From: a virus | Virus genome (UHGV): UHGV-1353844 | Strand: one strand, 5' to 3' | DNA: 64,000 bases | Shown: one piece after another, positions 3,633 through 27,961 of the stretch | Layout of the letters: each line of letters begins with the position of its first letter | How positions within the stretch are numbered: the stretch's first letter is position 1 | Program-made: the position numbers and the translations under genes | The notes under the pieces: generated by a model | Databases searched by the model: none | What the model was told of the DNA's origin: nothing | What the model saw: only the letters and a program-made list of their open reading frames with translations

Positions 3633-4282
3633 CGAAAGAAGAGATTCGGGCGCGTTATTTCGCGCACGATCTGCCAATTGACCGCCACGGTAACTACATG
3701 GAACGTGTAGGTAACGAAGACCGTGGTCGTACGGGGTTCTGTGCATTACTGCACTATAAGTTGATTGAAGGGATGAGTGATGAAGAAGCTTTAGCTCAGA
3801 TGCAAACTTACGAAATGTCTCCTATTGAGGCGAAGTTTACACTGAACAAAGCAAAAGAATTCATTACTGACGTTCTGGAGATTAACCTGGACGAGATTCG
3901 TTCGAATATGCGCTCGACGTCTCGCTATATCTATTTAGATATCCAGAAAATCATGTTGGAAATTGAACACCGATACGAAGACCAGCGTCACGGTTATATC
4001 GAAGTTGACGGCCATCATTTCCAAGCGGATGAAACCTCTCGTCAGATGCTGGGTCAATATATCCAGTCTGAAACTGCACCGGATTATTGGCTGGACACGT
4101 CGAATACACGTATAGAACCGTTTACGCTGGAGCAATGTAAAGCGTTAATGGCGGCTATTGTGAAACGTGACCAACAGCTACACAACGCGATGTCTGCCCA
4201 GAAAAGTGAAATTCGTCAGTACGCCGAACAGCGTGACTACGACACGATCCGTGCACTTGCGCTGGAAATGGGATTAGAATAA
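3608..4282 (+). CDS. hypothetical protein, radical SAM island partner
   Basis: 224-aa ORF, SD ggag, followed by strong bidirectional terminator. Confidence 0.65.
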   Translation: MSASNKSLTKEEIRARYFAHDLPIDRHGNYMERVGNEDRGRTGFCALLHYKLIEGMSDEEALAQMQTYEMSPIEAKFTLNKAKEFITDVLEINLDEIRSNMRSTSRYIYLDIQKIMLEIEHRYEDQRHGYIEVDGHHFQADETSRQMLGQYIQSETAPDYWLDTSNTRIEPFTLEQCKALMAAIVKRDQQLHNAMSAQKSEIRQYAEQRDYDTIRALALEMGLE

Positions 4283-4332
4283 AAAATACCTACCTCCGTA
4301 AAGGAGGTAGGTAAACTTATTATTTTTTGTTA
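4280..4332. terminator. bidirectional rho-independent terminator between convergent genes
   Basis: hairpin tacctacctcc-gtaa-aggaggtaggta flanked by A-run and T-run. Confidence 0.7.
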
Positions 4333-4350
4333 TAGTAGTTGACTTAGCGG

Positions 4351-4881
4351 TTAAGCAGTAAAACCGTCCAATTCACCGTCGGTGGTGGCCAGGTCAATAC
4401 GATTATCGACTACCTTCGGTGTAATTACGAAAGTTGCCATTACACCCGGTTTATAACGGAGGTTCTGTTCAGTAACGGTGCATGTCACGGTACGCAGAGT
4501 GACGTTTTCATGTTCGTCTTTCTGGTCTTCGGTGCTGTACACAACGTCACCTGGCGCGATAGCGTCGTCAGGTTTTACTTTGTTGATGTATAGCTGTAAC
4601 CAAGCGCGGAGTTCATTTTCTTGAACCCAACGAGACAGATCGTCAGTTAGTTCAATCCGTCCTACAACACCCGGCTCCAGACGATCGTAATGCAGTTCGA
4701 TTTCGCCTTTGAAATTCTCAGAACCCGGTAGTGCGGTCATGGTAACTTTGGTATTCTTACTTTCGCCTTCCAGCGCAGTAGGGAGACCAAAGGACACTTC
4801 TTTATCTGTAATCTGATGCGGTAGCTCAGCGTTAGCAGCATTATAAAGCGCGACCAACATCATCTGGTTAGTAGCGGCCAT
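4351..4881 (-). CDS. paralog-family protein (HY.RL / ELDGFTA motifs), likely abundant virion protein
   Basis: 176-aa ORF with strong optimal codon bias; paralog of 4951-5487. Confidence 0.6.
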   Translation of the reverse strand: MAATNQMMLVALYNAANAELPHQITDKEVSFGLPTALEGESKNTKVTMTALPGSENFKGEIELHYDRLEPGVVGRIELTDDLSRWVQENELRAWLQLYINKVKPDDAIAPGDVVYSTEDQKDEHENVTLRTVTCTVTEQNLRYKPGVMATFVITPKVVDNRIDLATTDGELDGFTA

Positions 4882-4905
4882 TATCTTAGGTCCTTAATAG
4901 AACAA

Positions 4906-4930
4906 GTTAGAGAAATATCGGGGGAGGTCA
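4906..4930 (-). terminator. GC-rich hairpin with C8 homopolymer between paralog genes
   Basis: atcggggg...cccccccgat inverted repeat. Confidence 0.4.
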
Positions 4931-4950
4931 CCCCCCCCGATTTAACTTAC

Positions 4951-5487
4951 TTAGCCACCGACACCCGGTGCAGTGAAGCCATCAAGTTCACCTTCCAGAC
5001 CGCTCAGCGCTACCTTCTCAGGAGCTGGGTTGGAATAAGTGAAGGTGGCAATAGTACCAGCCAGGAATTTAATGTGTGCATCGTTTACTTTGACAGTGTA
5101 AACTTTAGCACCACTATCCCCGTCAGTTTTCTCAATGGTCAGTTCGCTTTCAGCGAAATAGTCATCGACATAACCTTTAGTAACCATTTCTTCGTTCAGT
5201 TTGGTTACAATGGCAGAGTTTTCCAGATCGAGGCTACCGGCTTTTTCGTAAGCTTTGGCACCGATCAGGTCTTGAGAAGCCAGACGAATGTAGTGGAATT
5301 CTTTCTCGCCTTTGAAGTTCTGGCTTTCTGCCTTGGCGGTCAGCGTAATTTTGGTGTTACGACCACCGGTACCGCTGTGCGCTTCGACAGCACCAAAATC
5401 GACATCATCAACCGTCAGATTAGAAGCGGTTCCTGGGTTTTTAGCAATTACAGCTTCGACGAACTGCAGTTTGAAGGTTTTAGCCAT
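4951..5487 (-). CDS. paralog-family protein (HY.RL / ELDGFTAPGVGG C-terminus), likely abundant virion protein
   Basis: 178-aa ORF, strong codon bias, SD gaggt; antisense ORFs 5074-5509 are shadows. Confidence 0.6.
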   Translation of the reverse strand: MAKTFKLQFVEAVIAKNPGTASNLTVDDVDFGAVEAHSGTGGRNTKITLTAKAESQNFKGEKEFHYIRLASQDLIGAKAYEKAGSLDLENSAIVTKLNEEMVTKGYVDDYFAESELTIEKTDGDSGAKVYTVKVNDAHIKFLAGTIATFTYSNPAPEKVALSGLEGELDGFTAPGVGG

Positions 5488-5625
5488 CTTTTTACCTCGT
5501 AAGTGGTAGGGGTGGATTGCATAAGAATGTTATTTTAGACATTTCCTAAAATATAGATATGACGGTTGGCAGTAGGCGCTAACCTGAAAAAATTAATTTT
5601 TCTTAATTTTAATAAGGGTGAGATT

Positions 5626-6105
5626 ATGCTAAAACGCATTCTCGTGGTCGTTGCTTTTGTAATGACATTGGCAAGTTGTGCTATTCAGCCGAACGCAGAA
5701 GGTCAGTTCTCCACCGTACCTGTTGACCAACACGATATGGTCATTTACACCTGTACAGCTGCTTCTCAAGAATTCGACGATTTTAAACCGGTACCGTCTA
5801 GCCTAAAACTGATGCCCCTTTCGGTGTTAGTCATGGATACAGGGGCGAATTGGGTCGCTACATGGGACGAAGGTAAAATTGAATCTCCGCAACTTTATAA
5901 AGACCTGTTAGGCAAGGTGGACGGTAACTTAAACGTTGTTACCGGTGAGCGCTATTACCGTGTAAACGGGTTACTGTCGAAAACCCCAACGTTTGCGTAT
6001 TCTACCGTCAACTACAAAACGGGTGAAGGTAAAGGTGTAACGTTCTTCAGATGTCACGAAGGCAGCATTCCGGATACCGGCACTATGTTGCACCCGGTAG
6101 AATAA
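5626..6105 (+). CDS. lipoprotein (signal peptide plus lipobox LASC); moron-like opposite-strand gene
   Basis: MLKRILVVVAFVMTLASC N-terminus; ATG at 5626 with SD; the ORF-track start at 5566 is a TTG extension. Confidence 0.65.
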   Translation: MLKRILVVVAFVMTLASCAIQPNAEGQFSTVPVDQHDMVIYTCTAASQEFDDFKPVPSSLKLMPLSVLVMDTGANWVATWDEGKIESPQLYKDLLGKVDGNLNVVTGERYYRVNGLLSKTPTFAYSTVNYKTGEGKGVTFFRCHEGSIPDTGTMLHPVE

Positions 6106-6109
6106 TAAA

Positions 6110-6145
6110 TACCCTCCTGCTTAGCAGGAGGGTAGGCTTATTTTG
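6110..6145 (+). terminator. rho-independent terminator of lipoprotein gene
   Basis: ccctcctgc-ttag-caggaggg hairpin followed by ttatttt. Confidence 0.7.
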
Positions 6146-6225
6146 TCCGTAAAACGCTCTAGAATGCGTTCTAAGACAGTTTATACAAAATAATGTACAA
6201 TCACCCTAAGTTAAGGATTATGCGC

Positions 6226-6741
6226 TTAGATTTTAACTAAGGCGCTCCAATCGATAGGGCTTTGTTTCACGACTTTCACAGTACCGCGATTCGGTGACCA
6301 GAACGTGATATTCGGTTGGTTACGAACGTCGATATGTAACCAACTGATGTCGCATTCGATAAAGTGAATGAACGGAAATTCGTCAGGATTAGCGGCGATA
6401 TAGTCGTGGACTTGTTTTACCGTTGAGTCTAACAGTGTTGCGTCAAATGCATTACCGAACTTGTGCTGACTCCCTGAATCAGAGTAGAGTTGTAACGCAC
6501 GTTGTTTATAGTTACCACCCTTAGGCTTTTCTTGGTTGATGAAAAAGTCTAAGGTTCTTAGGCCACGCTGTTGCGCAGCAGACGAGTTAATCACCATTCT
6601 GCCGAAACGGTTACGAATCTGTTGTAGCGAAATCATTAACAACGGGTTCATAAACCGAATTGCAGAATCACCGTATTTGGCGATGTACGATTGTGGTACT
6701 AACTCTTTGAGTTTAAAGTTACTCGGATTTGGATGAAACAT
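6226..6741 (-). CDS. zinc peptidase M15-like (D-Ala-D-Ala carboxypeptidase / L-Ala-D-Glu peptidase fold), cell-wall hydrolase
   Basis: SQHKFGNAFDA (SxHxxGxAxD) and HIDVR motifs. Confidence 0.55.
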   Translation of the reverse strand: MFHPNPSNFKLKELVPQSYIAKYGDSAIRFMNPLLMISLQQIRNRFGRMVINSSAAQQRGLRTLDFFINQEKPKGGNYKQRALQLYSDSGSQHKFGNAFDATLLDSTVKQVHDYIAANPDEFPFIHFIECDISWLHIDVRNQPNITFWSPNRGTVKVVKQSPIDWSALVKI

Positions 6742-7393
6742 CTTCCCTCCCAGACAGAAAAGCCCGTTTGATGTTCAAGTATTTGACATTAACGGGACAA
6801 CCTGTGGTGATATCAACACGTTCGTGGTCAGGAATAGCAGGCTCCTTAAACTCACGAACGAACAAATAGTTTCGATTGTAATCTAACGTACGGTAATCGT
6901 TAGTGGTATAAGACGGCTTCGCGTTAGGGTCTACGTAAGCATCCCAACCGAACCCCGCCACGGCTTTATAAAATGTTTGGCAGATATACGGCGAGATTTC
7001 CAACGACTGCATAATACGCAGGAATGTTAAGTCAGAGAACTCTTTATCGATAATACGCGAAACGTTACCACCCGGTGTCATGGGATAGCTACGCTCCGTG
7101 TTACATTTTTGATAGAGTAAGTCGTGAATGCAGGCCGCAGGTGCCCACGGTCCGTCAGGATGGAAAATTCCCTGTAAGTGTTCAGGAATTGACGCTAAAT
7201 CGGTAACGAACCCTTTCGGAGCGGTTAACCACAGTTGCGTGTCAGGTAATACACCGGTTAAATAAACCGCACGGTCTAAGTGTACGTGGTCGTGATAAAT
7301 CTCACGTAACGTAAACGGATAATGGTAATCCTCCGTTAATACAAACCACTTATTATCTAAACGTTTATATTGAAGCTTTTCCATTACCCACAC
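6719..7393 (-). CDS. DUF1353-like protein
   Basis: TDLASIPE and HDLLY motifs typical of DUF1353. Confidence 0.45.
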   Translation of the reverse strand: MWVMEKLQYKRLDNKWFVLTEDYHYPFTLREIYHDHVHLDRAVYLTGVLPDTQLWLTAPKGFVTDLASIPEHLQGIFHPDGPWAPAACIHDLLYQKCNTERSYPMTPGGNVSRIIDKEFSDLTFLRIMQSLEISPYICQTFYKAVAGFGWDAYVDPNAKPSYTTNDYRTLDYNRNYLFVREFKEPAIPDHERVDITTGCPVNVKYLNIKRAFLSGREDVSSKSE

Positions 7394-14029: not shown

Positions 14030-14404
14030 TTAAATCTCCACCGTAGTTCGTTCAGTTTCTTTAATAAATCTATGGACCGACTCACCTAATTTCTTTACAC
14101 TATTACTAAGTTTAATAAGCGTATCGAAATAGTGTTGCGCTGTTCGACCAAATAACATCGGTCCTGCTTTCAGTTCCAATGCAGAAACCAGATAGAGTTC
14201 GGGAAGAAAAATAGCACCGCCTTTACGACCTATCCTGACGGTGATATTGCGTACCTGAACATTAATTAGTTTACCGTCAGGGAGTACCACAATTTCGGTA
14301 TACCAGTCTGTTGCTTTAACGATCGTTCTGACATTCTCACCACAAGCCCAGGTTTTAAACGAGGTGTCTAGCCAACATCTGAATTTGTATAACAGTAATG
14401 ACAT
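14030..14404 (-). CDS. hypothetical protein
   Basis: 124-aa ORF. Confidence 0.5.
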   Translation of the reverse strand: MSLLLYKFRCWLDTSFKTWACGENVRTIVKATDWYTEIVVLPDGKLINVQVRNITVRIGRKGGAIFLPELYLVSALELKAGPMLFGRTAQHYFDTLIKLSNSVKKLGESVHRFIKETERTTVEI

Positions 14405-14446
14405 ATTGTTACTCCACCCTCTCAGGAATTCCTGAGAGGGGTTATA

Positions 14447-14728
14447 TCACAGCTTCTCTTCTATTGTGTCGATTCGAACTAACGCGTCGTGACTGACTTT
14501 CCGTGCGTGTCCAATCGTACTGCCTAAAGCTTTTGTTGTTGGGTCTAAGGTATTCAGACGGTGATACTGATAATCGATATCGCGTATACAGCGCGCCTGT
14601 TGTTTTACCATCCGAATTAACTGTCGTTTGGTTTGACGATTGTTACTAAGCTGCTGCCGTAACCGCGTGTTTTCTTTATAAAGCTCCTGTTGACGTGAGT
14701 TAATTAAACCCAACAACCAATCTAACAT
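14447..14728 (-). CDS. hypothetical coiled-coil protein
   Basis: 93-aa ORF. Confidence 0.5.
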   Translation of the reverse strand: MLDWLLGLINSRQQELYKENTRLRQQLSNNRQTKRQLIRMVKQQARCIRDIDYQYHRLNTLDPTTKALGSTIGHARKVSHDALVRIDTIEEKL

Positions 14729-14730
14729 TT

Positions 14731-15246
14731 TTACCCCCGGTGCAAGAAAATACGGTTAGTGTTTTCGAATTTCGGTTCTGTCCACTCTAGTTCCCAGTAA
14801 GCCTGGTTAATATCGCGAGACGTAAGTTTCAGATTCGAAACATTGGGGATATCGCACATTTGAAGTAAACGGATAATCGTCACCAGCTCTTTACGAGGTC
14901 GGTCCCAGATAACCTCCAGATATTCTTTTAAACGTTCTGGATAAGCGACAGGACGAATATAGACCATACCCGACGGATACTCAATCGCTGAAGGTGTTTT
15001 AGGGACTAACCAAACCCAGTCTTTTAATACTGGGCCAGGATGATAATTCGAGAGCTGGGTAAGTGCGTTGGCGACAGAACGGCAACGGAAATACATGATG
15101 TCCCAGTCTTTCTCGAAACAGTTGTGTGCGACAACGACTTTTAATGGGTCGATAGGTTTACCGTCAATCGTAGTAACACCTGGCTGATTAGCCAAGATTT
15201 GACGTTCACGTTTGGTATAAAGATTCATGTTGATTGTTACAGACAT
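14731..15246 (-). CDS. hypothetical protein
   Basis: 171-aa ORF. Confidence 0.6.
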   Translation of the reverse strand: MSVTINMNLYTKRERQILANQPGVTTIDGKPIDPLKVVVAHNCFEKDWDIMYFRCRSVANALTQLSNYHPGPVLKDWVWLVPKTPSAIEYPSGMVYIRPVAYPERLKEYLEVIWDRPRKELVTIIRLLQMCDIPNVSNLKLTSRDINQAYWELEWTEPKFENTNRIFLHRG

Positions 15247-16960: not shown

Positions 16961-17473
16961 TTAACCACCAAAGGTTAAGACGCGATTATCTGCGGTAACG
17001 ATTAAATCGTTGTCTTTTACTACAGCGGCTTCTTCGTCGTTACCGAAAACCAGAACGGAGAATTGGCCTTTATAACCTAACGAGTTGGGTGAAACCTGTA
17101 ACGTTACAGCGTCTTTCCCTACGGTAAATGATTCGTCGGTAAGATCGTCGGGTTGTAAATTACAACCGCAAGCCGCGTTAATTCCGTCGATTAGATCGTG
17201 TGCGGTAAAACCATTACCGGAAACCTTTACCAGAATAGGTTGCTGGTTTAACCACCGCTCTGCGGTTAAACGGTTGTAATAGATTTGTAACGTTCTGTTA
17301 CCAGGACGTTTTATCTTTACAACAGCAGTGGTGTCACGATCCATTTCGTTACTGGTCTTTACGTCGCTGACTTCAACCTCGTTCTCTTGCAGGTCGAGCT
17401 GGAGGTCATGGTTAACCAGTGAAATAACCATGTTAAGTGAAGTTAACGACAAATCAGGCGTGAATTGTTCCAC
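16961..17473 (-). CDS. paralog-family protein (PDLSLTS N-terminus, YYNRL motif); GTG start
   Basis: 170-aa ORF, SD AGGAGG 8 nt upstream of GTG; paralog of 26897-27460. Confidence 0.6.
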   Translation of the reverse strand: MEQFTPDLSLTSLNMVISLVNHDLQLDLQENEVEVSDVKTSNEMDRDTTAVVKIKRPGNRTLQIYYNRLTAERWLNQQPILVKVSGNGFTAHDLIDGINAACGCNLQPDDLTDESFTVGKDAVTLQVSPNSLGYKGQFSVLVFGNDEEAAVVKDNDLIVTADNRVLTFGG

Positions 17474-17572: not shown

Positions 17573-18076
17573 TTAACTAATCTTCAAATCTCTTAATGTG
17601 CCGGTTGATTTCATCACGTTTTGGAAAGCAGTGCTAATGTTAGAGGTCCAGTAATAATGTTGACCATTAATAACCTGCTGATAGGCTACCGTACAAGTGT
17701 TGCCGCCTAGATTTACGGTGATGTTAGAAGCTCTCCCACCTTGTAAATAGACCGCTAAACTTGGTTTTGCATCAGCAGCCAATGTGATCAATAGTAGTTG
17801 GATACCAATAAGTGTGCCTACGCCGCAGCTACCAGGATTCTGAATAGTCCCTTTATTTTTCTGCGCTAACGGCCAGTTTGGTCCCACCGCACCCCAAAAT
17901 TTAGCCATTGAATCGCTATATGCAGCAGTTGCGATTTTACAGCCAAGAGATCGGCCCACCATTTGACTCATCATAAAAGGTCTACCCAATCCTAATTTAC
18001 TACCAGCAGCACTCATCCATTGTTCGCCCGTTTCGTTCTTGGCCGAAGAACCGACCCATCCAGATGCTACCCCCAT
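17573..18076 (-). CDS. fibre-associated protein sharing N-terminal ~45 aa with the Gly-rich protein (possible tip adhesin variant)
   Basis: GWVGSSAKNETGEQWMS N-terminus paralogous to 18137-18919. Confidence 0.55.
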   Translation of the reverse strand: MGVASGWVGSSAKNETGEQWMSAAGSKLGLGRPFMMSQMVGRSLGCKIATAAYSDSMAKFWGAVGPNWPLAQKNKGTIQNPGSCGVGTLIGIQLLLITLAADAKPSLAVYLQGGRASNITVNLGGNTCTVAYQQVINGQHYYWTSNISTAFQNVMKSTGTLRDLKIS

Positions 18077-18136
18077 TATACCCTATCCTTTTGAAAGGTG
18101 TGAGGAGGGGAGTGAGTATCCCCATACTTTTTCAAA

Positions 18137-18919
18137 TTAAACACGTGAACCATATATTGCACCTACTGCGTCCCATCTTGGCGCATTACCTCTAACGGCT
18201 GCACCAGCGGCTCCGCCGTTATATTCTGTACCGTTACCATGAGTATTACATCTTCCTCCAGCAGCACCGACATTACCACCCGAACCGCCTGTATATGCAC
18301 TAAGAGACCCCTCACCAACAGATCCTCTACCAGGAGCGGAAATAGTACCAGCAGCTGCACCGGAACTCATATGTGAGGAAGACCCACCAGCACCGAATGG
18401 GCGACCACCGCCACCACCAAATATTAGTCTACCCCTGTTACCGCCGCCACCGCCGCCACCGCCTCCGGCAATAGCGCCACGGTTGGTTATACGCAGTCTG
18501 TTTCCTATTCCGTTCTGTATTGCGGTTCCACCTGCACCGCCTGGTGAGTTAGAACCGCCGTTGCCTCCTCTGCCGTATACTGTAACCCCAGGATTGATGA
18601 TGAGTGTAATATACGAATTTGGAAGATTGCTAGGGAATTCTAAACAAGGAACCCCGCTACTATAAGACACTAAATCCCCTGTAATGGTCACAACGACAGC
18701 ATTAGAGCCTATAGAACGTAAATAGTTAATAAGCGTATCTTTATTGTAATTGTGATTAGCCCCGATCGAATACTGAACCTCTTTTGATTTTCCCGCCAAT
18801 TGCGACATCCAGCCTGGAACCGGCACACCAAGTGTGCGCATCGCGCCAGACATCCAATCGTTACCAGTTTCAGCTTTTGCTGAAGAACCAATCCAACCAC
18901 CTACGCCGACAACTGCCAT
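18137..18919 (-). CDS. glycine-rich protein immediately downstream of tail fibre (possible adhesin or tip protein)
   Basis: poly-Gly tracts (GGGGGGGGGN, GGGGRPFGAGG); start overlaps fibre stop (TAATG). Confidence 0.6.
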   Translation of the reverse strand: MAVVGVGGWIGSSAKAETGNDWMSGAMRTLGVPVPGWMSQLAGKSKEVQYSIGANHNYNKDTLINYLRSIGSNAVVVTITGDLVSYSSGVPCLEFPSNLPNSYITLIINPGVTVYGRGGNGGSNSPGGAGGTAIQNGIGNRLRITNRGAIAGGGGGGGGGNRGRLIFGGGGGRPFGAGGSSSHMSSGAAAGTISAPGRGSVGEGSLSAYTGGSGGNVGAAGGRCNTHGNGTEYNGGAAGAAVRGNAPRWDAVGAIYGSRV

Positions 18920-21900
18920 TAGGATCTTCCTTTAATTTCGTTAACCTCTTGACGCAACGCTTTCATACCCTCTACTAACAGCGCAATAACGCCATTGTAG
19001 TTTAGACGTAAACGTTTTTCGCCTGAAATGGCATCATCATCCTCAGACACAAGTTCAGGTAACGCTTCTAATGCGTCTTGAGCAATTAGACCTACCGAAG
19101 TGTTCCAACCGTCGTCTGGATGTTGAACCTCGTACAGATAGCCGGTAAGCGCTTCTAACCGATCCAAAGCCTTATCCAGCTTCACCAGATTACGTTTGTT
19201 GCGACGGTCAGAACGAATCTGTACGTCGTTAAACGAACCGTTACCGTTGCTAGAAATGTTATGACCAAAGGTTACTTGACCGTTAGAGTTATTAAAATAC
19301 AACGGACGTAGTCCGTTCCAGGAACCCGTTGCGGCTTGTCCGGAGTCGGTTACTAAGAAATAGGTATTGGCACCATCATTACGTAAAATGAAACCGCAGC
19401 TACCGTAAGCGATTCGGAAATCAGCATACTTCGTAACCAGTTTACCGTTAACCGTTAAATCGCCAGTGACAGTACCGCCGCTGTTCTTCAAAAACAGCGC
19501 ATCAATCCAGCCTGCAAATCCTGACTTATTGATGTATAAATTTCCATCATTTGCCAGAATGCCGCCACCCGGCGTCTTGAGAGGCTGACTCACATTTTGC
19601 AGCGTCAGCACACCATTCAATTGACCGCCAGATAATGGCAACGCCCCAACATCCGCAGCAGTTGGCTTGTTTTTCGTATTGTAAGCGCGACGCCAACCTG
19701 GTGAGTAAGCATCACCGTTATTTACGTAGATAAACTCCGCATTAGTGAGTGCGCCGCCGACGCTCGTCGTTGTGGGGGTCGTTATACGGATCGTGTAGTT
19801 GTTTGCGCTGTTACTAATCACTTCTATAACAGCCCCAGCTAACGGAATAACACCACAACCCGTCTCGCTGTTCGGTATGGACGCACTAGCAGCATAAGCC
19901 CATGCACAGCGAGCAACCCATGATTTTGTGGTAAACGCGCCGTTATTTTGCAATAACGTCACTAGCTGTGCTGTAGTTATTGCGCCGCCGTCTTTACCAG
20001 TCTCCAACCAACCAGTGGGCGAAGCCGGACAACCTATATCGGCAGGCCCTAACGATATATTTCTAGTACCGTCAAATGCGATACCGTTAATGGTACGCGC
20101 TGTCTGCAACTTTGTTGCCGTGGCTGCGTTTCCGGTAGTCGACTGATTACCCGTCTGGTTTACACCGGGCAGACTAATGTCTTGCGAACCGTCAAAGTTA
20201 ACACCGCCGATCTTACGTGCTGTTTGTAACTTAGTAGCGGTCGCTGCATTACCTGTCGTATTCTGGTTGCCTTGCTGGTTAACCCCCGGTAAATTGATAT
20301 CCCCAGTACCGTCAAAGGTAACGCCGCCGATTCTGCGAGCGGTTTTCAGTTTCGTCGCGGTAGCGGCATTGCCAGTAGTATCCTGATTACCGGTGGTATT
20401 TACACCAGGAATACTGTCACGGGCAGTATAAACTTGTGCCCAATCTGACCACGGCGCATCAGCCGTATCGCGTCGACTACGAATATAAACGGGTGCGTGT
20501 GCACCACTCGTGCCCGACCAACCAATTAACAACTCACCTTCGCCTAGCGCATTAGCACCACCTAAGTGCAGCAAGTTACCATAGGCGGTTGGATAACCGT
20601 TATTGTAAACTTCGTACATCTGGATACCAGGTGTACCCTTGTTCGACCCGGTCAGAGCGGTAACCCGTCCACGACCTACCAAGGTGTTGATATTGATGTC
20701 TCCAGAGCCATCGAATTTCACACCGTTAATATTTCTGGCGGTTTGAAGTTTAGTGGCTGTCGCGGCGTTACCTGTGGTGTTTTGATTACCTTGTTGGTTA
20801 ACACCTGGGAGGTTAACGTCGCCGCTGCCGTCGAAAGCGACCCCGCCAATTCTACGCGCAGTCTGGAGCTTAGTGGCGGTTGAAGCATTGCCGGTTAACT
20901 CACCTGCTAACCCTTTTGCAAAGGTCTGTTTCTCTGCCCAAGTGTGGGCTGCGTTCAACACAGGCATCTGTCGTGGCGTAATCGTACGGCTACCCTTCTC
21001 GCCAGCGATACGTACTGCAAAGAAGCGATAGTTAGCAGTAGACACTGTACCGCGCCAGACCAACATACTCCGACCAGTACCGGTGTCCTCTGACGCCCCT
21101 ACGAGAATACTGACCAAGTTACCGTCAATAACACCCCAATCCATTCCCGCAGGAATGTTTTTCATGGTATTCAACGGTGTACTTATCATCTGGCCAGGAA
21201 CGAAATCGAAGGTTTGCCAGTCTAACGGATCGACCTTGGCAGCAACCCCACCGATCCCTAAAGCCAACGGGAGTGAATAGGATGTGAAAATCTCTCGCCA
21301 TTCGCTCCAGGCGTTTCCTGTACGAATTCGTTGGAACTTGCGACCTTTCGTAGTTGCGCCTGTACCGTATGTGGTATAATTTTGTTCAACGCCTGAACCG
21401 TCTAAGCGTAAGGTAACTTCGCAAACACCTAACAAGGTTGCGCCAGCAGAGTCTGTTAACGGACCGTCAGTAGCCTCACCGGTAACACTAAAACGACCAG
21501 GTTTAGTTAAGTCATTAAAGCTACCCTTATAGTAGGCACCGTCTACCTGATACCCAACTTGAATCCAATCTTCCCACTGTGGATTAGACGCATCCCAAGT
21601 CGCAGTCAACCCACGGACATACATCGTACCACGACGAGTGGTGTAACGTTGCATACGTCCGTAGAGACCACCTTCCATTACTTCTAATACACCTTGAGCA
21701 TTACCACCTTCTTCGGGATAATGACGATCGAACGTCGCAAGAGAAGAACTGGAGTTACGCCACTGACCCATGTGTTCAACACCACCTAAAGTGTTAAGGT
21801 CAATAGTGGTGGAGAGCGGACGGTTCGCGGTAGTTGTCATTCTCCAGGGCGACCAAGGGCCGTTAGTACCGTTCCAGGTTCCTGTTAAACGACGAGTATA

Positions 21901-23385
21901 GACGTTACCGTTACGTATGGTAAAACGTTGGCTTCCGCTGTAGTTACCTGCTTTGAATACCTCTAAGTAACCAACTGCATCGTCTTCCGGGAAGTTCTTT
22001 GCAATTGTTGCATTCGTAGACGTGGCTTTAGACCAGACACCCATAAACGCTTCGACTGGGCCGAAGGTGTTGATATCCGCATCTACTGCCATTTCCCCAT
22101 TAAACTTCAAATACGTCTCTGCTGACAACCCGATGTTCTTCGCGAAGGTGACTTTATCTGGAATATCGGCACCGTTAGAACTGCGTTGCATAGCACCCGC
22201 AGCTTTATCAACAGTGGTTTTCAAACCCAGGAAGTTAATGATATCTGCCGTCGACCCTTTCGCTAACAAATCACGCGCAGTCGAGGTGAAATCCGCTAAC
22301 CCTACCTGATTACTACCGGTAAAGTAAGGGAGTTTGTTTGCAGCGGTGGTGACTGCGGCAATCGCTGTCAGTAACGGACTTAACGGCTGTTTACCCGCGA
22401 GTTGGTTCGTCATCGTTGTCGCAAAGTTAGGATCGTTTCCTAACGCAGCTGCAATTTCTGATAACGTATCTAACGTCTCGGGTGAAGAGTCCACTAATTC
22501 AGCAATCGCTTGCCGTACCCATGCGGTCGTTGAGACGCTCGTGTCGTTAGAATCCGAAGCAGGTGTTGGTGCTTTTACCACACCGGTAAAAGTTGGGTTG
22601 TGACGGTTTGCTTTTAACTGCAAATCTTCATTTAACTGCTTAACCGTTGACGGCGTAGCCGCTTCAGTAACAGAGTCACTGCTTAAGGTATTATTAAGTC
22701 TAACGATACCTTTACTGGTCGTTGTTGCATCAACGTTACCTTTTGCAGCGATTTCTTCTGCACGCTTAGCCGCTGCCTCAGAACGCGTTGCCGCATTCTC
22801 TGCGGTTTCTTTGTCTGTGGTAACTTGCGTTGCTGTAGCTTCTACAGCGGCTTTTGACGACTCTACCGACGCGACAGCTTCGTTAACTGCCGTAAGCGAC
22901 TGTTCGACTTGACCGGCTTGTGTGGCAACAGTTTCTGCTTTCTTCGTAACGGTAGTCACCGCTTGTGTGACGTTGGCCTCGCTTGCCGCTACCGCTTGCG
23001 CTTTCTCATTAACGGACACAACCTGGGTATCTACCGCCGTTTTCGCGGCTAACACTTCAGTGTGTTTTGTACCGACTTCAGTTGCTTTTTCGGTTACAGT
23101 TTGCGCTTGTTGAGCAACTGTAGCCGCAACGGTGTCAGTTTGTTGTTTTGCTGTTTCTGCTAAATTCTTTGCTTGTGTAGCCTGAGTTGCAGCTTCTTGT
23201 GATTGTGTTGCTGCTGTTTGTGCATCAGACACCGCATTACGTACGGTGTCAATATCTGCAACGATCTCACGGACAGGTAACTTATAATCTTTCTCATCCT
23301 TGGAAAAAAGTAAAACACCTTCACCTATATCCCCGGTGTATGGACGTAAATCGTGTAAACGAATTTTCTTTACCGCTTTAGCCAT
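18919..23385 (-). CDS. long tail fibre protein with N-terminal anchor, A/T/Q-rich coiled coil, five NTTGNAATATKLQTAR repeats and C-terminal intramolecular chaperone (S74-type autoproteolytic) domain
   Basis: 1488-aa ORF; C-terminal SDRRNKRNLVKLDKALDRLEALTGYLYE segment; repeat motif typical of phage fibre repeats. Confidence 0.85.
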   Translation of the reverse strand: MAKAVKKIRLHDLRPYTGDIGEGVLLFSKDEKDYKLPVREIVADIDTVRNAVSDAQTAATQSQEAATQATQAKNLAETAKQQTDTVAATVAQQAQTVTEKATEVGTKHTEVLAAKTAVDTQVVSVNEKAQAVAASEANVTQAVTTVTKKAETVATQAGQVEQSLTAVNEAVASVESSKAAVEATATQVTTDKETAENAATRSEAAAKRAEEIAAKGNVDATTTSKGIVRLNNTLSSDSVTEAATPSTVKQLNEDLQLKANRHNPTFTGVVKAPTPASDSNDTSVSTTAWVRQAIAELVDSSPETLDTLSEIAAALGNDPNFATTMTNQLAGKQPLSPLLTAIAAVTTAANKLPYFTGSNQVGLADFTSTARDLLAKGSTADIINFLGLKTTVDKAAGAMQRSSNGADIPDKVTFAKNIGLSAETYLKFNGEMAVDADINTFGPVEAFMGVWSKATSTNATIAKNFPEDDAVGYLEVFKAGNYSGSQRFTIRNGNVYTRRLTGTWNGTNGPWSPWRMTTTANRPLSTTIDLNTLGGVEHMGQWRNSSSSLATFDRHYPEEGGNAQGVLEVMEGGLYGRMQRYTTRRGTMYVRGLTATWDASNPQWEDWIQVGYQVDGAYYKGSFNDLTKPGRFSVTGEATDGPLTDSAGATLLGVCEVTLRLDGSGVEQNYTTYGTGATTKGRKFQRIRTGNAWSEWREIFTSYSLPLALGIGGVAAKVDPLDWQTFDFVPGQMISTPLNTMKNIPAGMDWGVIDGNLVSILVGASEDTGTGRSMLVWRGTVSTANYRFFAVRIAGEKGSRTITPRQMPVLNAAHTWAEKQTFAKGLAGELTGNASTATKLQTARRIGGVAFDGSGDVNLPGVNQQGNQNTTGNAATATKLQTARNINGVKFDGSGDININTLVGRGRVTALTGSNKGTPGIQMYEVYNNGYPTAYGNLLHLGGANALGEGELLIGWSGTSGAHAPVYIRSRRDTADAPWSDWAQVYTARDSIPGVNTTGNQDTTGNAATATKLKTARRIGGVTFDGTGDINLPGVNQQGNQNTTGNAATATKLQTARKIGGVNFDGSQDISLPGVNQTGNQSTTGNAATATKLQTARTINGIAFDGTRNISLGPADIGCPASPTGWLETGKDGGAITTAQLVTLLQNNGAFTTKSWVARCAWAYAASASIPNSETGCGVIPLAGAVIEVISNSANNYTIRITTPTTTSVGGALTNAEFIYVNNGDAYSPGWRRAYNTKNKPTAADVGALPLSGGQLNGVLTLQNVSQPLKTPGGGILANDGNLYINKSGFAGWIDALFLKNSGGTVTGDLTVNGKLVTKYADFRIAYGSCGFILRNDGANTYFLVTDSGQAATGSWNGLRPLYFNNSNGQVTFGHNISSNGNGSFNDVQIRSDRRNKRNLVKLDKALDRLEALTGYLYEVQHPDDGWNTSVGLIAQDALEALPELVSEDDDAISGEKRLRLNYNGVIALLVEGMKALRQEVNEIKGRS
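20040..20420 (-). repeat. imperfect ~120-bp tandem DNA repeats inside fibre gene encoding the GNAATATKL repeats
   Basis: three successive units ending ccgtcaaa(g)ttaacaccgccgat / ccgtcaaaggtaacgccgccgat. Confidence 0.6.
20693..20895 (-). repeat. second block of the same fibre repeat
   Basis: units gccatcgaatttcacaccgttaat / gccgtcgaaagcgaccccgccaat. Confidence 0.55.
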
Positions 23386-23419
23386 GATATTTAATTCTCT
23401 ATCGGGAGCTAAAAGATCT

Positions 23420-23453
23420 GGGGGAGGTAAAGCACCTCCCCCAACATTTTTAT
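23420..23453 (-). other. GC-rich hairpin between enzyme gene and fibre gene (attenuator or terminator)
   Basis: gggggaggt-aaagc-acctccccc. Confidence 0.4.
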
Positions 23454-23463
23454 AAGCGGGTTA

Positions 23464-26400
23464 TTATTGCTCCGGTTTTAATGGAACATCTTCTATCGTT
23501 AACGTAACGTCTAAGACCGCTTGACTGTGGTCAGTAATCGCTAAGTCACGATAAATATTAGCGTTGGGTCCGTAGGTTTTATAAGTAACGTAGAGACCTA
23601 ACGCACGTAGCACTTCTCCAGTGTAGAACCCATAAGCCATTCCGTTATCAGAAGACTCTCGAGCGGCTGGAGACCACGCTCCATTAATCGGCTTATTCGG
23701 AATTGAGGTAATCGTAAACCCTTCACCTAACTCCTTAATTGCCGCATTAACCACTTTTTCGTAGTTCGGATTCGTTGCACCGGCGAGTAATGCCCAGCAA
23801 CACCCTGCTAACCACAACCCACACATATGTGCGGTGAAGTCGTTTTCCACCCAAACAGCTTTATCCGGTGCTGTAGGGAACTCGTTAGGAGTGTGGCCGT
23901 TAAACCGATCCACAAACCCACCTAGCCAATTCACCCAGTTGTCAATATAGGTTGTTAACGCCTCGGGAACGTCTTTACCTCGCAGTTTCAGTTCGTACCA
24001 ACACCGACACGCAGCATGAAACGCGCGAGGCTGATACCCTGCCCAAGGATGGTCATCACCCCAATGGAACGTCGTCCAGGTATCCGCTTCTCCGTAGCTG
24101 TAGTTGTCCCAACGGTTCCAGATATAAGCTGCGCAACCAGGTCCTAATTCCCCAATTTGCTGTTGGTAAGCCAACTGCGAATCGTGCAGGAATTGAATCT
24201 GGTTATCTAACCACAACTTATACCGGTCGTCTTTGTGGATACTGTACATAAACGGATACTGATAACCTGGATAAGGCATCCCGTGCCAAGCACCTAACTG
24301 TTCTGAACCTTCTAAGTAGCTGTTCGTGAACGGTATCGTACCCGGACAGTACGCTAACGAATCCAATCGGTAATCTACAATCGTACAATCACCCACCTTT
24401 GCATCAAACTCTGCACCACCGCGTAAGGCAATACGGAAGGTTAAAATATAACCATCGTCTTTATTAAAGACCGGTGGGACATCGTTAACACAATAGTAAG
24501 CAAAGTGTGCATGGTCAACTGTGGAGTCAGGAAGAATCGTGACCTGATCCACCTTATCGAAATTCGGTGCTGAAGGTTTAGGGTCAGCGTCTGTGTGGTC
24601 TGGCTGATAACCGGAAAGTGTGGCTTCATCCGGATTCAACGTTACCTGACGCCATTCGTTGTTTGTGTTGGGTAACATCCACCACCAAAGCCAGTTATCA
24701 CTGTCGACTAAACGCAAGTTAAAATCTGCGTCTGCACGGTAAACAATAGAAACGGGTTTTACCTTCTCTTCAGCGGTTAACCAAAACCCGATAATAAACC
24801 CGGCACTGTCATCAGGAAATTCCGCTTCTACCACGGTACCCGCGCGACCATCGTAAATGCTATCCTCAAAACGTTCTTCCCACGTACAACCACCGTAGTC
24901 CGAACACGCACGGGCTTCAGCTATCAGGTAGTCTCCCCCTTCTGGGGTGGTAATACGGGAAAGTTGGCCTAAGTCAACATCGTACTGTTTAACGGTATTT
25001 ACCGTAGACCGAGGTAAGGTTAAACCGTACCAGTTTACCTCCTCGGTATCAGCTTTCGCAGGGTTAATGTTCACCATCACTTTACAGTAGACAGGATCGC
25101 CATTCTTACAAACTCCACCGTACGTGACACGTAGTTTAGAGTCTTTGTTAATCCTGAACCTAACCGCTTTTTGCTCCATAAAGTGCTGCGCCGCTTCAGG
25201 CACGTGGATGGTAATGTCTCCATTCTCATCACGGCCGTAGGTGGCACTTACGGTATCTGGGTAATCGAAATCGTACGAAATACCGTCAGTAAACGGTGTA
25301 TCCGCAGCGGTAGAACGACGGAAGAATTTATCTGTCGCATCAATATACGTGTACTCATGTGCGGTGTAGAAAGCACAGTCTAATGCTTGTTTGTATTTCT
25401 CTTCACCTGTGATTCGCCACAGCAAATAACAGGCGTCGATAAACCACAGTTCAGCATCAGCGGCGTTACCGTATTGGTTTTTCGACCCTAAGAACGGTGT
25501 GTGGACCGGACGGTTGTGCCACGGCTCATTACGTTTAAATTCGTAACCGCCGTGTTCGACAGGAAGTTTTACCGCGTAGTTAATTAAATAGACACCGTTT
25601 AACTGTGTGTCTTTTAACTGTACGGTACCTTTATCAGCGTCTGCTAATCCCGTCTCAATAATTTCACCATCCTGGATTTTGTTACCCGTCCAGGCAATTA
25701 TCCAGTCAACGTCGTGTTTAGGAGCTTTTGTTGCAGAGCCGCCCCAAAGCGGGGTGTAACCTGTAGTATTATTTAGCAGTGTTGGCCAATCGACCCAAGC
25801 TGTGCTTTCGTAAGGCTTATCAGGATTAGTAATAACGTGAGTTAAAACGTCTTCCCAATTAATCGACCCTTCTTTGTCTTCCTTGATAATCTGTACATCT
25901 GCGTTAATCGCGGCCCAGGCAGGGTGGCCACGATATGCAAACGTACAGATATCCAAATACTCTCCCCAGAAAGGTGCACCGTGCGGTATCTTACATTGGC
26001 CATTTGTAAACCTTACAGGAACACATTTATACCCGCCGTTGGTAGGTTCCGTAGGGTGAATAGGATAGTGTGCTAATACCGGTTCTTTCCCGTTTACTAA
26101 CCAGTTACAAATCCGACGCTGGGGTGTTGTCGGAATAGGCTGTCCGGCGTAGAAGTACGTGTTGTACGCATCCCAGGCGTGTTTCGCAGCATCTAACCAT
26201 CTTTCGTCTTTTGTTGCGATATACATGTGGCAATAACCGATAATGTGTAACGACTGACCCTCGGTCGTTGCGTCACCGTTCGGTTGGTATTCCGCCATGG
26301 TATCAGCGATGAAATGACGGTTATTCGACAGAACACCTTCTTCGTTTTGAATGTAATGATCGATATGTGCGTCGTTAGTCGTTCCCGTATTCCGGGTAAC

Positions 26401-26469
26401 GAAGGATTGGTGACCGTAAGCTAACGATAACGCGTAGCTAATCGCGTGACGCTGAAAATGTTTTCTCAT
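23464..26469 (-). CDS. large W/Y-rich enzyme-like tail protein (candidate polysaccharide-degrading depolymerase)
   Basis: 1001-aa ORF rich in Trp/Tyr/Asp; lies in-frame directly after anchor ORF, separated only by TAA. Confidence 0.65.
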   Translation of the reverse strand: MRKHFQRHAISYALSLAYGHQSFVTRNTGTTNDAHIDHYIQNEEGVLSNNRHFIADTMAEYQPNGDATTEGQSLHIIGYCHMYIATKDERWLDAAKHAWDAYNTYFYAGQPIPTTPQRRICNWLVNGKEPVLAHYPIHPTEPTNGGYKCVPVRFTNGQCKIPHGAPFWGEYLDICTFAYRGHPAWAAINADVQIIKEDKEGSINWEDVLTHVITNPDKPYESTAWVDWPTLLNNTTGYTPLWGGSATKAPKHDVDWIIAWTGNKIQDGEIIETGLADADKGTVQLKDTQLNGVYLINYAVKLPVEHGGYEFKRNEPWHNRPVHTPFLGSKNQYGNAADAELWFIDACYLLWRITGEEKYKQALDCAFYTAHEYTYIDATDKFFRRSTAADTPFTDGISYDFDYPDTVSATYGRDENGDITIHVPEAAQHFMEQKAVRFRINKDSKLRVTYGGVCKNGDPVYCKVMVNINPAKADTEEVNWYGLTLPRSTVNTVKQYDVDLGQLSRITTPEGGDYLIAEARACSDYGGCTWEERFEDSIYDGRAGTVVEAEFPDDSAGFIIGFWLTAEEKVKPVSIVYRADADFNLRLVDSDNWLWWWMLPNTNNEWRQVTLNPDEATLSGYQPDHTDADPKPSAPNFDKVDQVTILPDSTVDHAHFAYYCVNDVPPVFNKDDGYILTFRIALRGGAEFDAKVGDCTIVDYRLDSLAYCPGTIPFTNSYLEGSEQLGAWHGMPYPGYQYPFMYSIHKDDRYKLWLDNQIQFLHDSQLAYQQQIGELGPGCAAYIWNRWDNYSYGEADTWTTFHWGDDHPWAGYQPRAFHAACRCWYELKLRGKDVPEALTTYIDNWVNWLGGFVDRFNGHTPNEFPTAPDKAVWVENDFTAHMCGLWLAGCCWALLAGATNPNYEKVVNAAIKELGEGFTITSIPNKPINGAWSPAARESSDNGMAYGFYTGEVLRALGLYVTYKTYGPNANIYRDLAITDHSQAVLDVTLTIEDVPLKPEQ

Positions 26470-26931
26470 TTAGTAACCCGCTGCAAGAAGAGAACCTTTC
26501 CAAGTGGCACCCCCGTCAAGGGTATAAAGCGACAGAGTGTCTTCCGCATTTGCCGTGTAGGATAAAACCGGTTTTGCACCGTGAGGCCACTTAACGTTTT
26601 CAGGCCAGGTTACTTTATTCGCCCCTGTTCCCTGCTTAAACGTTAGCATTACTTCGAAACGGGTATTTTCCGCAACGTTAGTAAGGGCTGCGAACGTCAC
26701 CGTAGTAGTGGGATCGTTTAACACCAGAATAATGTCAGTGCTGGTATTGAAATCCAACGTGGCGGCATTATTCGAACCGTTAACCGTGGTGACTGTCGCA
26801 ACCGGGGCTAACTTATCAACATCAATTTTATATTCTTTATTGTCTTTGCTATACAGCAGTACCCCGCCCTGCGGTGTGCCTGCGTAGCTTTCGAGCTCAT
26901 GGAGTCTCGTCTTCTTCAGTGCTGTCGCCAT
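26470..26931 (-). CDS. tail-fibre N-terminal anchor-domain protein
   Basis: MATALKKTRLHELESYAGTPQGGVLLYSKDNKEYK aligns with fibre N-terminus MAKAVKKIRLHDLRPYTGDIGEGVLLFSKDEKDYK; ATG at 26931 with SD GAGG. Confidence 0.6.
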   Translation of the reverse strand: MATALKKTRLHELESYAGTPQGGVLLYSKDNKEYKIDVDKLAPVATVTTVNGSNNAATLDFNTSTDIILVLNDPTTTVTFAALTNVAENTRFEVMLTFKQGTGANKVTWPENVKWPHGAKPVLSYTANAEDTLSLYTLDGGATWKGSLLAAGY

Positions 26932-27460
26932 CTGTAACCTCGAATGTAAGAACGGCATTGTCACCAATACAGAAGATTGCATCTTCTTCGTTTGCTAATG
27001 CCCGTTCGGTTGTATCAAACAACGTCACCATAAACGCGTTCATCCACGCAGGAGAATCGTCGGCAACGTTAACGGAAATGGGATCGTTACCTAAAGTGAT
27101 ATCTGAAGCACGTAAATCCTCGGGTTGTAAGTTCGTTCCGCAGAATTCATTTACAACACTAAGAATGTCACGAACGTTGTCTTCAGTACCGTCTAACGAA
27201 ATCAGAATGGGTTCATACGTTAATACTTCATCTGCGTCGAGTCTGTCGTAATAAACCACAACAGACGCACCATCTGGTTTTCTGATTTTACTGATTTCGG
27301 TAATGGTGTTACGACGCGAAGTTGTTGGAGATGAGTTTGTTACGGTCCCGCTAATACGTATTTCGTTTAGCGTAAGCTGTAACCCATTATCGTGATTGAT
27401 TAAAGCGACCACTAGCTCTGCTGAGGTCAGACTCAAATCAGGTACGTATGGTGTGGCCAC
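26897..27460 (-). CDS. paralog-family protein (PDLSLTS, VYYDRL); GTG start
   Basis: 187-aa ORF; paralog of 16961-17473. Confidence 0.6.
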   Translation of the reverse strand: MATPYVPDLSLTSAELVVALINHDNGLQLTLNEIRISGTVTNSSPTTSRRNTITEISKIRKPDGASVVVYYDRLDADEVLTYEPILISLDGTEDNVRDILSVVNEFCGTNLQPEDLRASDITLGNDPISVNVADDSPAWMNAFMVTLFDTTERALANEEDAIFCIGDNAVLTFEVTDGDSTEEDETP

Positions 27461-27473
27461 TTAACCCTCCGAG

Positions 27474-27521
27474 ATCAAAAAAAAATAAAACACCTACCGC
27501 CCATAGAATCGGGCGGTAGGA
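27474..27521 (-). terminator. rho-independent terminator
   Basis: cctaccgccc-atagaatc-gggcggtagg hairpin preceded by A9 run on plus strand. Confidence 0.7.
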
Positions 27522-27586: not shown

Positions 27587-27961
27587 TTATTCGGTTAATT
27601 CTCCACACAACACAACGTCGATACCAAACATCATTCCCACTTCTTGAAGTTTGTTCGCCAGTAAGTGTCGATGACAAAACTTACCTGCGGGACAATAACA
27701 CATCAAAACCAAGTCATCGTGTCTGAGTAACGACACTAAAACTTCGGCATCAGTATCTAACAGTCGTTCGAGTTTGTACAAATACTTTATCGTGTACTCA
27801 CGTTCAGCGGCAGCGTCCTTGACAGAAGATTTATACGCCATTAGGAAATCCCAGTCGGGGGCGAGTTCCTTTCGACCTGACTTCACGGTGATATCCACCG
27901 CGTGAAATCCTTTCTGCTTAGCTAACCGCCACTTAGCGAGTTGTAGCGTCCAGATACGCAT
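27587..27961 (-). CDS. small conserved protein with CYC...C.HR motif (DUF488-like, tentative)
   Basis: LVLMCYCPAGKFCHRHLLA segment. Confidence 0.35.
   Translation of the reverse strand: MRIWTLQLAKWRLAKQKGFHAVDITVKSGRKELAPDWDFLMAYKSSVKDAAAEREYTIKYLYKLERLLDTDAEVLVSLLRHDDLVLMCYCPAGKFCHRHLLANKLQEVGMMFGIDVVLCGELTE

Follow-up and report, generated by a model that had tools for sequence, protein, structure and literature searches.

A stop codon abutting a start codon in an SPN3US-like jumbo phage: the boundary between a small tail protein and a predicted (alpha/alpha)6-barrel tail enzyme

Does a single stop codon standing in frame between two phage tail genes signal a fusion made by readthrough, a gene recently broken in two, or simply the border between two proteins that work together? 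The question arises from UHGV virus genome UHGV-1353844, of which we analysed a stretch of 64,000 nucleotides (nt), called here the window. On its minus strand, a small open reading frame (ORF) of 153 amino acids (aa; 26470-26931, TAA stop at 26472-26470) ends where an ORF of 1001 aa begins (23464..26469, ATG at 26469-26467), the latter being the orthologue of SPN3US gp124 and a 'tail protein' of the phi92 gp141 type. The first-pass annotation of this DNA had offered all three possibilities: readthrough or suppression at the TAA, a recent nonsense split of one tailspike gene, and a two-component receptor-binding device in which an anchor docks a separate enzyme. We consider it likely that the two genes encode a two-part host-surface device, in which a small protein, plug at one end and socket at the other, holds a glycosidase-type enzyme lacking an anchor of its own, both being made from one transcript by coupled translation. 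Comparison with relatives indicates that the TAA-ATG junction itself is unremarkable, a tightly coupled border at which one tail gene ends and another, separate one begins; the in-frame stop would not be a case of recoding, and annotation of the locus as a fusion or a pseudogene is unwarranted. Judged by its sequence, the window comes from a jumbo phage that is new, SPN3US-like and related to phiKZ: over the flanking 24 kb, nucleotide identity to Erwinia phage Asesino/phiEaH2 and to Salmonella phage SPN3US-type jumbo phages is ~73-75%, and the enzyme gene gives a 71% match to Proteus phage 7 (Seoulvirus).

The junction in the window and among relatives

On the minus strand the letters ...GCA GCG GGT TAC TAA ATG AGA AAA... 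are contiguous and in one frame, as had been noted at first pass, the stop of the small ORF abutting the start of the large one (TAAATG, 26467..26472). The program-made small ORF opens further upstream, at 26982. We prefer the ATG at 26931 and hence a product of 153 aa, because the small-ORF homologues all start MAT, MAA or MAS in alignment with this codon, and because a Shine-Dalgarno (SD)-like GAGGU lies 5 nt before it and none before ATG 26982. Nor is the junction a sequencing artefact, since L009, an independent metagenomic relative that is 94-97% identical, has the same junction, and since both ORFs have diverged from it mostly by synonymous change (12 synonymous vs 5 nonsynonymous differing codons in the small ORF, 162 vs 65 in the large).

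Across 19 genomes, drawn from seven phage lineages, the junction takes several forms. It reads TAC TAA ATG in the window and L009 and TAC TAG ATG in L019, in frame in each; SPN3US, Proteus phage 7, SNUABM_29 and SPAsTU have TAA NCC ATG, where a 3-nt spacer keeps the frame. The two ORFs are out of frame in Asesino (TGA G ATG, gap 1, +1) and in L018 (TAC TAA CG ATG, gap 2, +2), whose enzyme is 91% identical. They are also out of frame in JN03, EC001 and L010, which have no stop after the GY codons and in which the small ORF overlaps the enzyme ORF by 19 nt (-19), and in all six other lineages (muut, Vibrio G1, L013, L014, L015 and L017), where the overlap is 1 or 8 nt. The stop codon among these relatives is TAA, TAG or TGA. 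Thus, both proteins remain intact although the reading frame, the spacer and the stop codon between them change from relative to relative, and with two of the five junction types of the jumbo clade in frame, the in-frame arrangement appears to be no more than chance.

A search for the fused product gave the same picture. No fused protein was present in 120 enzyme homologues (of 315 found), nor in 56 clusters of small-ORF homologues, and ARAGORN found no tRNA genes in the window. Given the drifting junction, the intact proteins, the lack of fusions in these sets and the lack of a tRNA gene in the window, neither readthrough nor a recent split is supported. Readthrough or suppression at the TAA would yield a minor, functionally required anchor-enzyme fusion of ~1155 aa. 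The frame would permit it, without a spacer, in the window, L009 and L019 and, across 3 nt, in the four phages of the SPN3US junction type, and the layout resembles programmed readthrough, for which the Q-beta A1 read-through coat protein is an example, in that two in-frame ORFs are parted by a single stop. However, neither frame nor stop is conserved here, the frame being lost in Asesino, L018, the three genomes with the 19-nt overlap and every other lineage; the window's stop, TAA, is the one that leaks least in enterobacteria, and some relatives have TAG or TGA instead; and the second ORF opens with an ATG of its own, preceded by an SD-like site. We therefore regard a required fusion as highly improbable, and trace readthrough, by which lineages with gap 0 or gap 3 would merely gain some covalently joined anchor-enzyme product, as no more probable than that. 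The possibility that a nonsense mutation or an assembly error recently cut one ancestral tailspike gene in two is fainter still. It would account for two contiguous ORFs in one frame, but every relative and every lineage in the comparison has two ORFs, with a conserved '...GY/GW' end on the first and an ATG of its own on the second, and the identical junction in an independent sample, together with the synonymous excess in both ORFs, also argues against it.

The features around the junction point instead to ordinary coupling. Of the 13 junctions scored, 12 have an SD-like stretch 6-9 nt before the enzyme ATG; it falls within the last small-ORF codons, which encode the conserved ...G-G-W/Y end, and in the window it is GGGU. 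The predicted pairing energy with the anti-SD sequence ranges from -4 to -11 kcal/mol over the 13 junctions and is -4.1 in the window. Stop and start codons that abut or overlap, combined with a weak internal SD, are the classic layout of translational coupling, and translation of the two ORFs is probably coupled at the stop/start. Ribosomes ending the small ORF would restart at the adjacent ATG, helped by the weak SD-like sequence in its last codons; such coupled restart would supply both partners in similar amounts, with no need for a fusion protein.

The two genes would share their transcript with a third. An ORF of 187 aa with a DUF7941 domain (26897..27460, minus; Pfam PF25613, E=7.6e-20; phrog_2935), the orthologue of SPN3US gp122, is the first gene of the unit and shares 35 nt with the beginning of the small ORF. 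The one-strand order DUF7941 - small ORF - enzyme is kept in SPN3US, Proteus phage 7, Asesino and SNUABM_29, as well as in JN03, EC001, SPAsTU, L009, L010, L018 and L019. Two terminator-like hairpins on the minus strand bracket the three genes as one unit: one lies upstream, between a DUF488 gene and the DUF7941 ORF (27493..27520; 11 pairs, 8 G-C, with a T-run), and the other in the 78-nt gap after the enzyme gene (23418..23444; 12 pairs, 7 G-C). No terminator-like hairpin was found at the small-ORF/enzyme junction, and a scan for sigma-70 promoters gave background level.

The small protein and the tail enzyme

The small protein matches phrog_9017 over residues 1-153 (E=4.7e-39) and is 47% identical to SPN3US gp123 (SPN3US_0123) at 100% coverage (tblastn). 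It falls into two parts. The first is an N-terminal anchor peptide, aa 1-41 (26809..26931, minus; MATALKKTRLHELESYAGTPQGGVLLYSKDNKEYKIDVDKL), which is 52% identical to the N-terminus of a 1488-aa long tail fibre encoded downstream. The label of a fibre-type anchor given to it at first pass is correct: the first 50 residues of the two proteins share 26/50 identities (BLASTP, E=9e-12), and the motif occurs in exactly two places in the six-frame translation of the window, namely the small ORF and the fibre. In a monomer model of the small protein, the anchor has a predicted local distance difference test (pLDDT) score of ~50. The second part, aa 46-153 (26473..26796, minus; QGTGANKVTWP...LSY...LDGGATWKG...GY), is modelled as a C-terminal beta-sandwich with a pLDDT of ~90, and we propose it as the domain that docks the enzyme.

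Conservation of the two parts differs sharply. The C-terminal domain (the last ~100 residues) is 32-48% identical across the seven lineages, and it is also the part matched in phrog_9017 and in seven other PHROGs named 'tail fiber protein'. The N-terminal parts cannot be aligned with one another. That of the Vibrio G1 small protein matches the T7 tail-fibre N-terminal domain (PF03906, E=1.7e-7), and that of P0160 the lambda-type 'prophage tail fibre N-terminal' domain (PF08400); the N-terminal parts thus appear to be lineage-specific attachment modules. Pfam has no family for the small ORF, searches of PDB by sequence and profile gave nothing meaningful for it, and its C-terminal domain shows weak fold matches to known attachment domains. 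The stretch LDGGATWKG in this domain (residues 140-148, 26488-26514, minus) resembles an Asp-box (S/T-x-D-x-G-x-T-W), a likeness that is probably the reason both for the annotation 'sialidase domain protein' on some of the small protein's phi92-like homologues and for the sialidases that Foldseek lists, at non-significant E-values.

The large protein matches phrog_2871 over residues 6-983 (E=0) and is 71% identical to SPN3US gp124. Its model (pLDDT 90.4, predicted template modelling score 0.86) is an (alpha/alpha)6 barrel split by two beta-rich inserts, the barrel helices coming from N-terminal segments (~2-106 and 337-372) and a C-terminal one (~739-966). In its predicted barrel fold it is like GH8 (clan GH-M) and other (alpha/alpha)6-barrel glycosidases such as GH76, GH88 and GH105, but it differs from all of these in its large inserts and in an identity of only ~10%. 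Throughout 73 homologues, the residues E70 (in TTEGQ) and D338/E340 (in AADAE) do not vary, and these motifs presumably resemble the acid and Asp motifs of GH8, a likeness that we take as a lead and not as a test. The description as enzyme-like thus holds at the level of the fold, and an enzyme of this kind would probably bind or cut a surface glycan. A homologue in phage S144, ORF17, has been described as a tail protein that 'may have hydrolase activity' (PMC7432712). We also followed a lead from the BASEL paper on the 'N4 glycan receptor' (NGR), which was dropped because nothing ties NGR to this enzyme family.

Most members of the family appear to have no means of attaching themselves to the virion. 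A conserved motif, GH..F...NTG, begins within ~40 residues of the start in 102/120 homologues, which leaves these enzymes without an anchor of their own. Three in which it starts later (P0082, P0089 and P0107) carry other N-terminal modules, in two cases (P0082 and P0089) the P2 baseplate protein gpI fused to the enzyme. On the P2-like contig that encodes P0082 (L016), the enzyme fused to gpI (PF09684) occupies 4001-7294, immediately downstream of gpV-gpW-gpJ; the 7.3-kb locus contains no ORF that encodes the small-protein domain, the contig ending 48 nt past the fused gene. Other members are enlarged elsewhere: P0012, P0017, P0022, P0023 and P0026 (~1690 aa) have a long C-terminal extension of Big_2 Ig-like repeats, and P0014, P0016 and P0029 (~1150 aa) an insert of ~160 residues after residue ~210. 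As far as their sequences go, these variants show modular decoration of one core.

The pair in other phages and in the virion

The small gene and the enzyme gene are adjacent and unfused in six lineages beyond the SPN3US-like jumbo phages. The phi92-like phage muut (Justusliebigvirus) encodes proteins of 157 aa then 958 aa, with an enzyme 41% identical to that of the window (BLASTP), and the T7-like Vibrio phage vB_VpaP_G1 proteins of 269 aa then 936 aa, with an enzyme 40% identical. The others are an SU10-like podophage contig (L017), a Rosemount/Loughborough-like Salmonella contig (L013), a Spongiibacter prophage (L015) and a P2-like Pseudomonas fluorescens prophage (L014). The last has the order gpJ - gpI - small - enzyme - fibre, so that gpI, small ORF and enzyme are three separate genes, unlike in the gpI-fused L016. 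Between lineages the enzyme is 41-57% identical over ~900 residues. A Mantel test of C-domain against enzyme identities gave a rho of 0.51 (15/2000 permutations), driven mostly by the jumbo-phage cluster. In the Spongiibacter prophage, a second, weaker copy of the small-ORF C-terminal domain (L015:2814-3506, E=3.4e-7) lies two genes upstream of the pair.

The closest known counterpart is gp123/gp124 of SPN3US, which stands in the same order after gp122 (DUF7941) and is homologous in both proteins; it differs from the window in its 3-nt spacer (TAA GCC ATG, against none), in having no long fibre/Gp38 cassette downstream and in carrying the anchor motif once per genome. The phi92-type pair gp140/gp141, represented by muut, likewise has the same small-protein C-terminal domain directly upstream of a full-length enzyme homologue, with the differences that the N-terminus of the muut small protein is unrelated, the junction is TAATG and out of frame, and the baseplate is another. 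Annotations of the two genes, as 'tail fiber protein' and 'tail protein', thus exist already in SPN3US-like and phi92-like phages and in others. In RefSeq the orthologues of gp122, gp123 and gp124 are named 'virion structural protein', 'tail fiber protein' and 'tail protein', respectively (SPN3US_0124 being a 'tail-associated protein'), and gp141 has been counted among the five tail fibres and spikes of phi92 (PMC10269720). Our literature search found no paper that names SPN3US gp123/gp124 or describes the function of the pair, and the papers on the jumbo phages Lh1B and SPFM contain nothing specific on it.

Published proteomics place both proteins in the SPN3US tail. In wild-type virions, gp123 (16.5 kDa) gave 55 peptide-spectrum matches (PSMs) and gp124 (113.7 kDa) 530, compared with 0 and 20 in tailless heads, and both are classed 'Tail' (Scheuch et al., PMC10052503 Table S2). 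Expressed per kDa, these are ~3.3 PSMs for gp123 vs ~4.7 for gp124, values compatible with similar copy numbers. For gp122, the same table (PMC10052503 Table S2) gives 22 PSMs in wild-type virions and none in tailless heads, yet the label 'Non-virion'; gp122 could be a tail protein of low copy number.

How would the two proteins work together? We propose that the small protein is an adaptor, whose first ~41 residues form a lineage-specific plug into the baseplate and whose conserved C-terminal beta-sandwich holds the large enzyme, an (alpha/alpha)6-barrel protein of glycosidase type that has two beta-rich inserts but itself lacks a module for virion attachment. Adaptors that carry a separate tailspike are known from K1-5/K1E/SP6 (gp37), from G7C (gp66/gp63.1) and from the TSP2/TSP4 branching of CBA120. 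The proposed logic of the pair is the same, and what marks such systems is found here too: an N-terminal attachment module on the small protein, an enzyme without an anchor, and two genes that co-occur in all seven lineages, no small-domain ORF being present where the enzyme is fused to gpI. The pair differs from K1-5/K1E/SP6, G7C and CBA120 in showing no sequence relationship to them and in that the docked enzyme would be an (alpha/alpha)6 barrel and not a beta-helix tailspike; the contact between the partners is, in our case, one that we infer. Conservation of the enzyme across hosts is also far higher than is typical of depolymerases.

Several points weigh against this reading. Contact between the small protein and the enzyme is deduced from gene and domain arrangement, and adjacency and co-inheritance are also what one would expect of two tail proteins that act independently, or of a protein and the factor that assembles it. 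The PSMs from SPN3US are shotgun counts, which cannot tell separate from fused products. On the side of the enzyme, no glycoside hydrolase family in Pfam scores above threshold (GH76 stays below it, at 18 bits vs a cut-off of 25.9, and GH8 gives no match even at E up to 10), and searches of PDB by sequence and profile gave no solved structure, so that a glycosidase activity is read from the fold only.

Two other relationships between the proteins have to be weighed accordingly. The small protein could be a short fibre with a receptor-binding tip at its C-terminus, and the enzyme an independent neighbour that attaches itself to the baseplate. RefSeq and PHROGs do call the small protein a 'tail fiber protein', it shares its anchor with a true fibre, the Asp-box-like LDGGATW in its C-terminal domain is of a kind seen in carbohydrate-active proteins, and both proteins are found in the SPN3US tail. 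However, a receptor-binding tip that stays 32-48% identical from Vibrio to Spongiibacter to Salmonella hosts would be unusual, and in most enzymes of the family no attachment module can be recognised. Furthermore, the small ORF stands directly upstream of this one enzyme family, always with abutting or overlapping stop/start, throughout the seven lineages, and there is no small ORF where gpI, a baseplate protein, is joined to the enzyme. We judge independence of the two proteins to be unlikely, although it is the most serious of the alternatives. Alternatively, the small protein might be an assembly factor or chaperone of the enzyme, made together with it by coupled translation and kept loosely or transiently in the particle. 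Tight coupling, strict co-occurrence with the enzyme and the smaller number of PSMs in SPN3US would fit such a role. Against it, gp123 is present in purified virions and not in tailless heads, at a per-kDa level near that of gp124, and it would make no sense for a non-structural chaperone to carry such N-terminal modules for attachment to the virion as PF03906, PF08400 and the anchor in common with the fibre. Tail-fibre chaperones, moreover, are usually encoded downstream of their client. A chaperone role is therefore quite improbable in our estimate, and clearly more so than independence. The idea of a two-component device, as raised at first pass, accordingly stands as far as conserved adjacency, domain architecture and SPN3US virion proteomics carry it, while physical docking is the part that would have to be assumed.

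The adaptor-enzyme reading may extend further. The C-terminal domain and the (alpha/alpha)6 enzyme could together be a portable, universal cassette of socket plus enzyme, moved among myo-, podo- and sipho-type phages by swaps of the N-terminal plug. Since the enzyme is unusually well conserved (41-57% from Vibrio podophages to enterobacterial jumbo phages), its target could be a surface glycan common to Gammaproteobacteria and not a serotype-specific capsule or O-antigen. We put the chances of this wider proposal at slightly below even. If true, the cassette would be an uncharacterised class of receptor-binding or host-surface-processing device, built on a conserved (alpha/alpha)6 enzyme without a characterised relative. 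The comparison in any case recasts a tail-gene pair without assigned function as what would be a conserved adaptor-enzyme cassette with a swappable plug, found across very different phages, and the pair gives a model, concrete enough to test, of the way in which host-recognition proteins are mounted on SPN3US-like jumbo phages.

The long fibre and neighbouring genes

In the clade of the window, the same plug seems to have been grafted onto a second device, an imported long fibre of P1/P2/T-even type with a Gp38 adhesin. Segments of P1, P2 and Goslar type make up the mosaic 1488-aa fibre (18919..23385, minus; anchor aa 1-41 at 23263-23385), which has both a Gp34 trimerisation domain and an S74 chaperone domain. 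Downstream of it lie a Gp38-type tail-fibre adhesin of 260 aa (18137..18919, minus; PF05268, E=3e-69, and PF21721) and a second Gp38_N ORF (17573-18076, minus). Together these genes make up a T-even/P1/P2/Goslar-type long-fibre cassette (17573-23385, minus) inside a phiKZ/SPN3US-like jumbo phage. At this locus the long fibre occurs only in the window's own clade (window, L009, L018 and L019), inserted after the enzyme's terminator, and is absent in SPN3US, Asesino, SNUABM_29, JN03, EC001, SPAsTU and L010. The other SPN3US-like phages in GenBank carry the anchor motif once per genome, on the small ORF. As the plug is also on the long fibre, the baseplate site would accept two different receptor-binding devices.

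To follow the anchor beyond this clade, we searched 1.84 billion representative proteins with a profile of the two N-terminal motif sequences. It finds 17 proteins, the match beginning at residue 1-3 in 14 of them and covering exactly residues 1-41 in 11. Besides a 1494-aa fibre and small adaptors of 154-156 aa, the anchor heads proteins of 710, 273, 259, 188 and 133 aa, as well as one of 706 aa with an SASA carbohydrate esterase domain and DUF6645. The ~41-residue anchor would thus be a portable plug for one baseplate site. Nature already joins it to fibres and esterases, and host-range engineering could follow the same logic. Four members of this set, P0197, P0191, P0184 and P0194, comprise the 706-aa protein with the esterase domain, the 710-aa protein, which has Ig-like and propeller-like parts, and the 273- and 188-aa proteins, which have no known domains.

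The fibre itself varies within the clade. In L019 (12539-18121), its first ~50 residues are nearly unchanged, the distal half is different (1385 aa in all), and the ORFs downstream, one of 273 aa and one for a DUF4376 protein, stand in place of Gp38; this pattern looks like swapping of host-range cassettes behind a fixed anchor, to judge by these two genomes. The L018 fibre is called as two pieces of 629 aa and 696 aa, although the frame is open across 14380-14800, spanning the gap between them. L018 itself (CP134655.1, 84386-102847) lies on a 114.5-kb record within the Enterobacter ludwigii assembly GCA_031875345.1, a placement that may point to the host genus, or to phage DNA that the bacterium carried or that was co-assembled with it.

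Two further features lie close to the tail genes. Just upstream of the hairpin that precedes the three-gene unit is an ORF of the DUF488-N3a family (27587-27961, minus; PF22751, E=3e-11), whose position is conserved in SPN3US-like phages. A second DUF7941 ORF lies at 16961-17473 (minus), so that it and its paralogue at 26897-27460 (phmmer, E=3.5e-33) flank the receptor-binding block.

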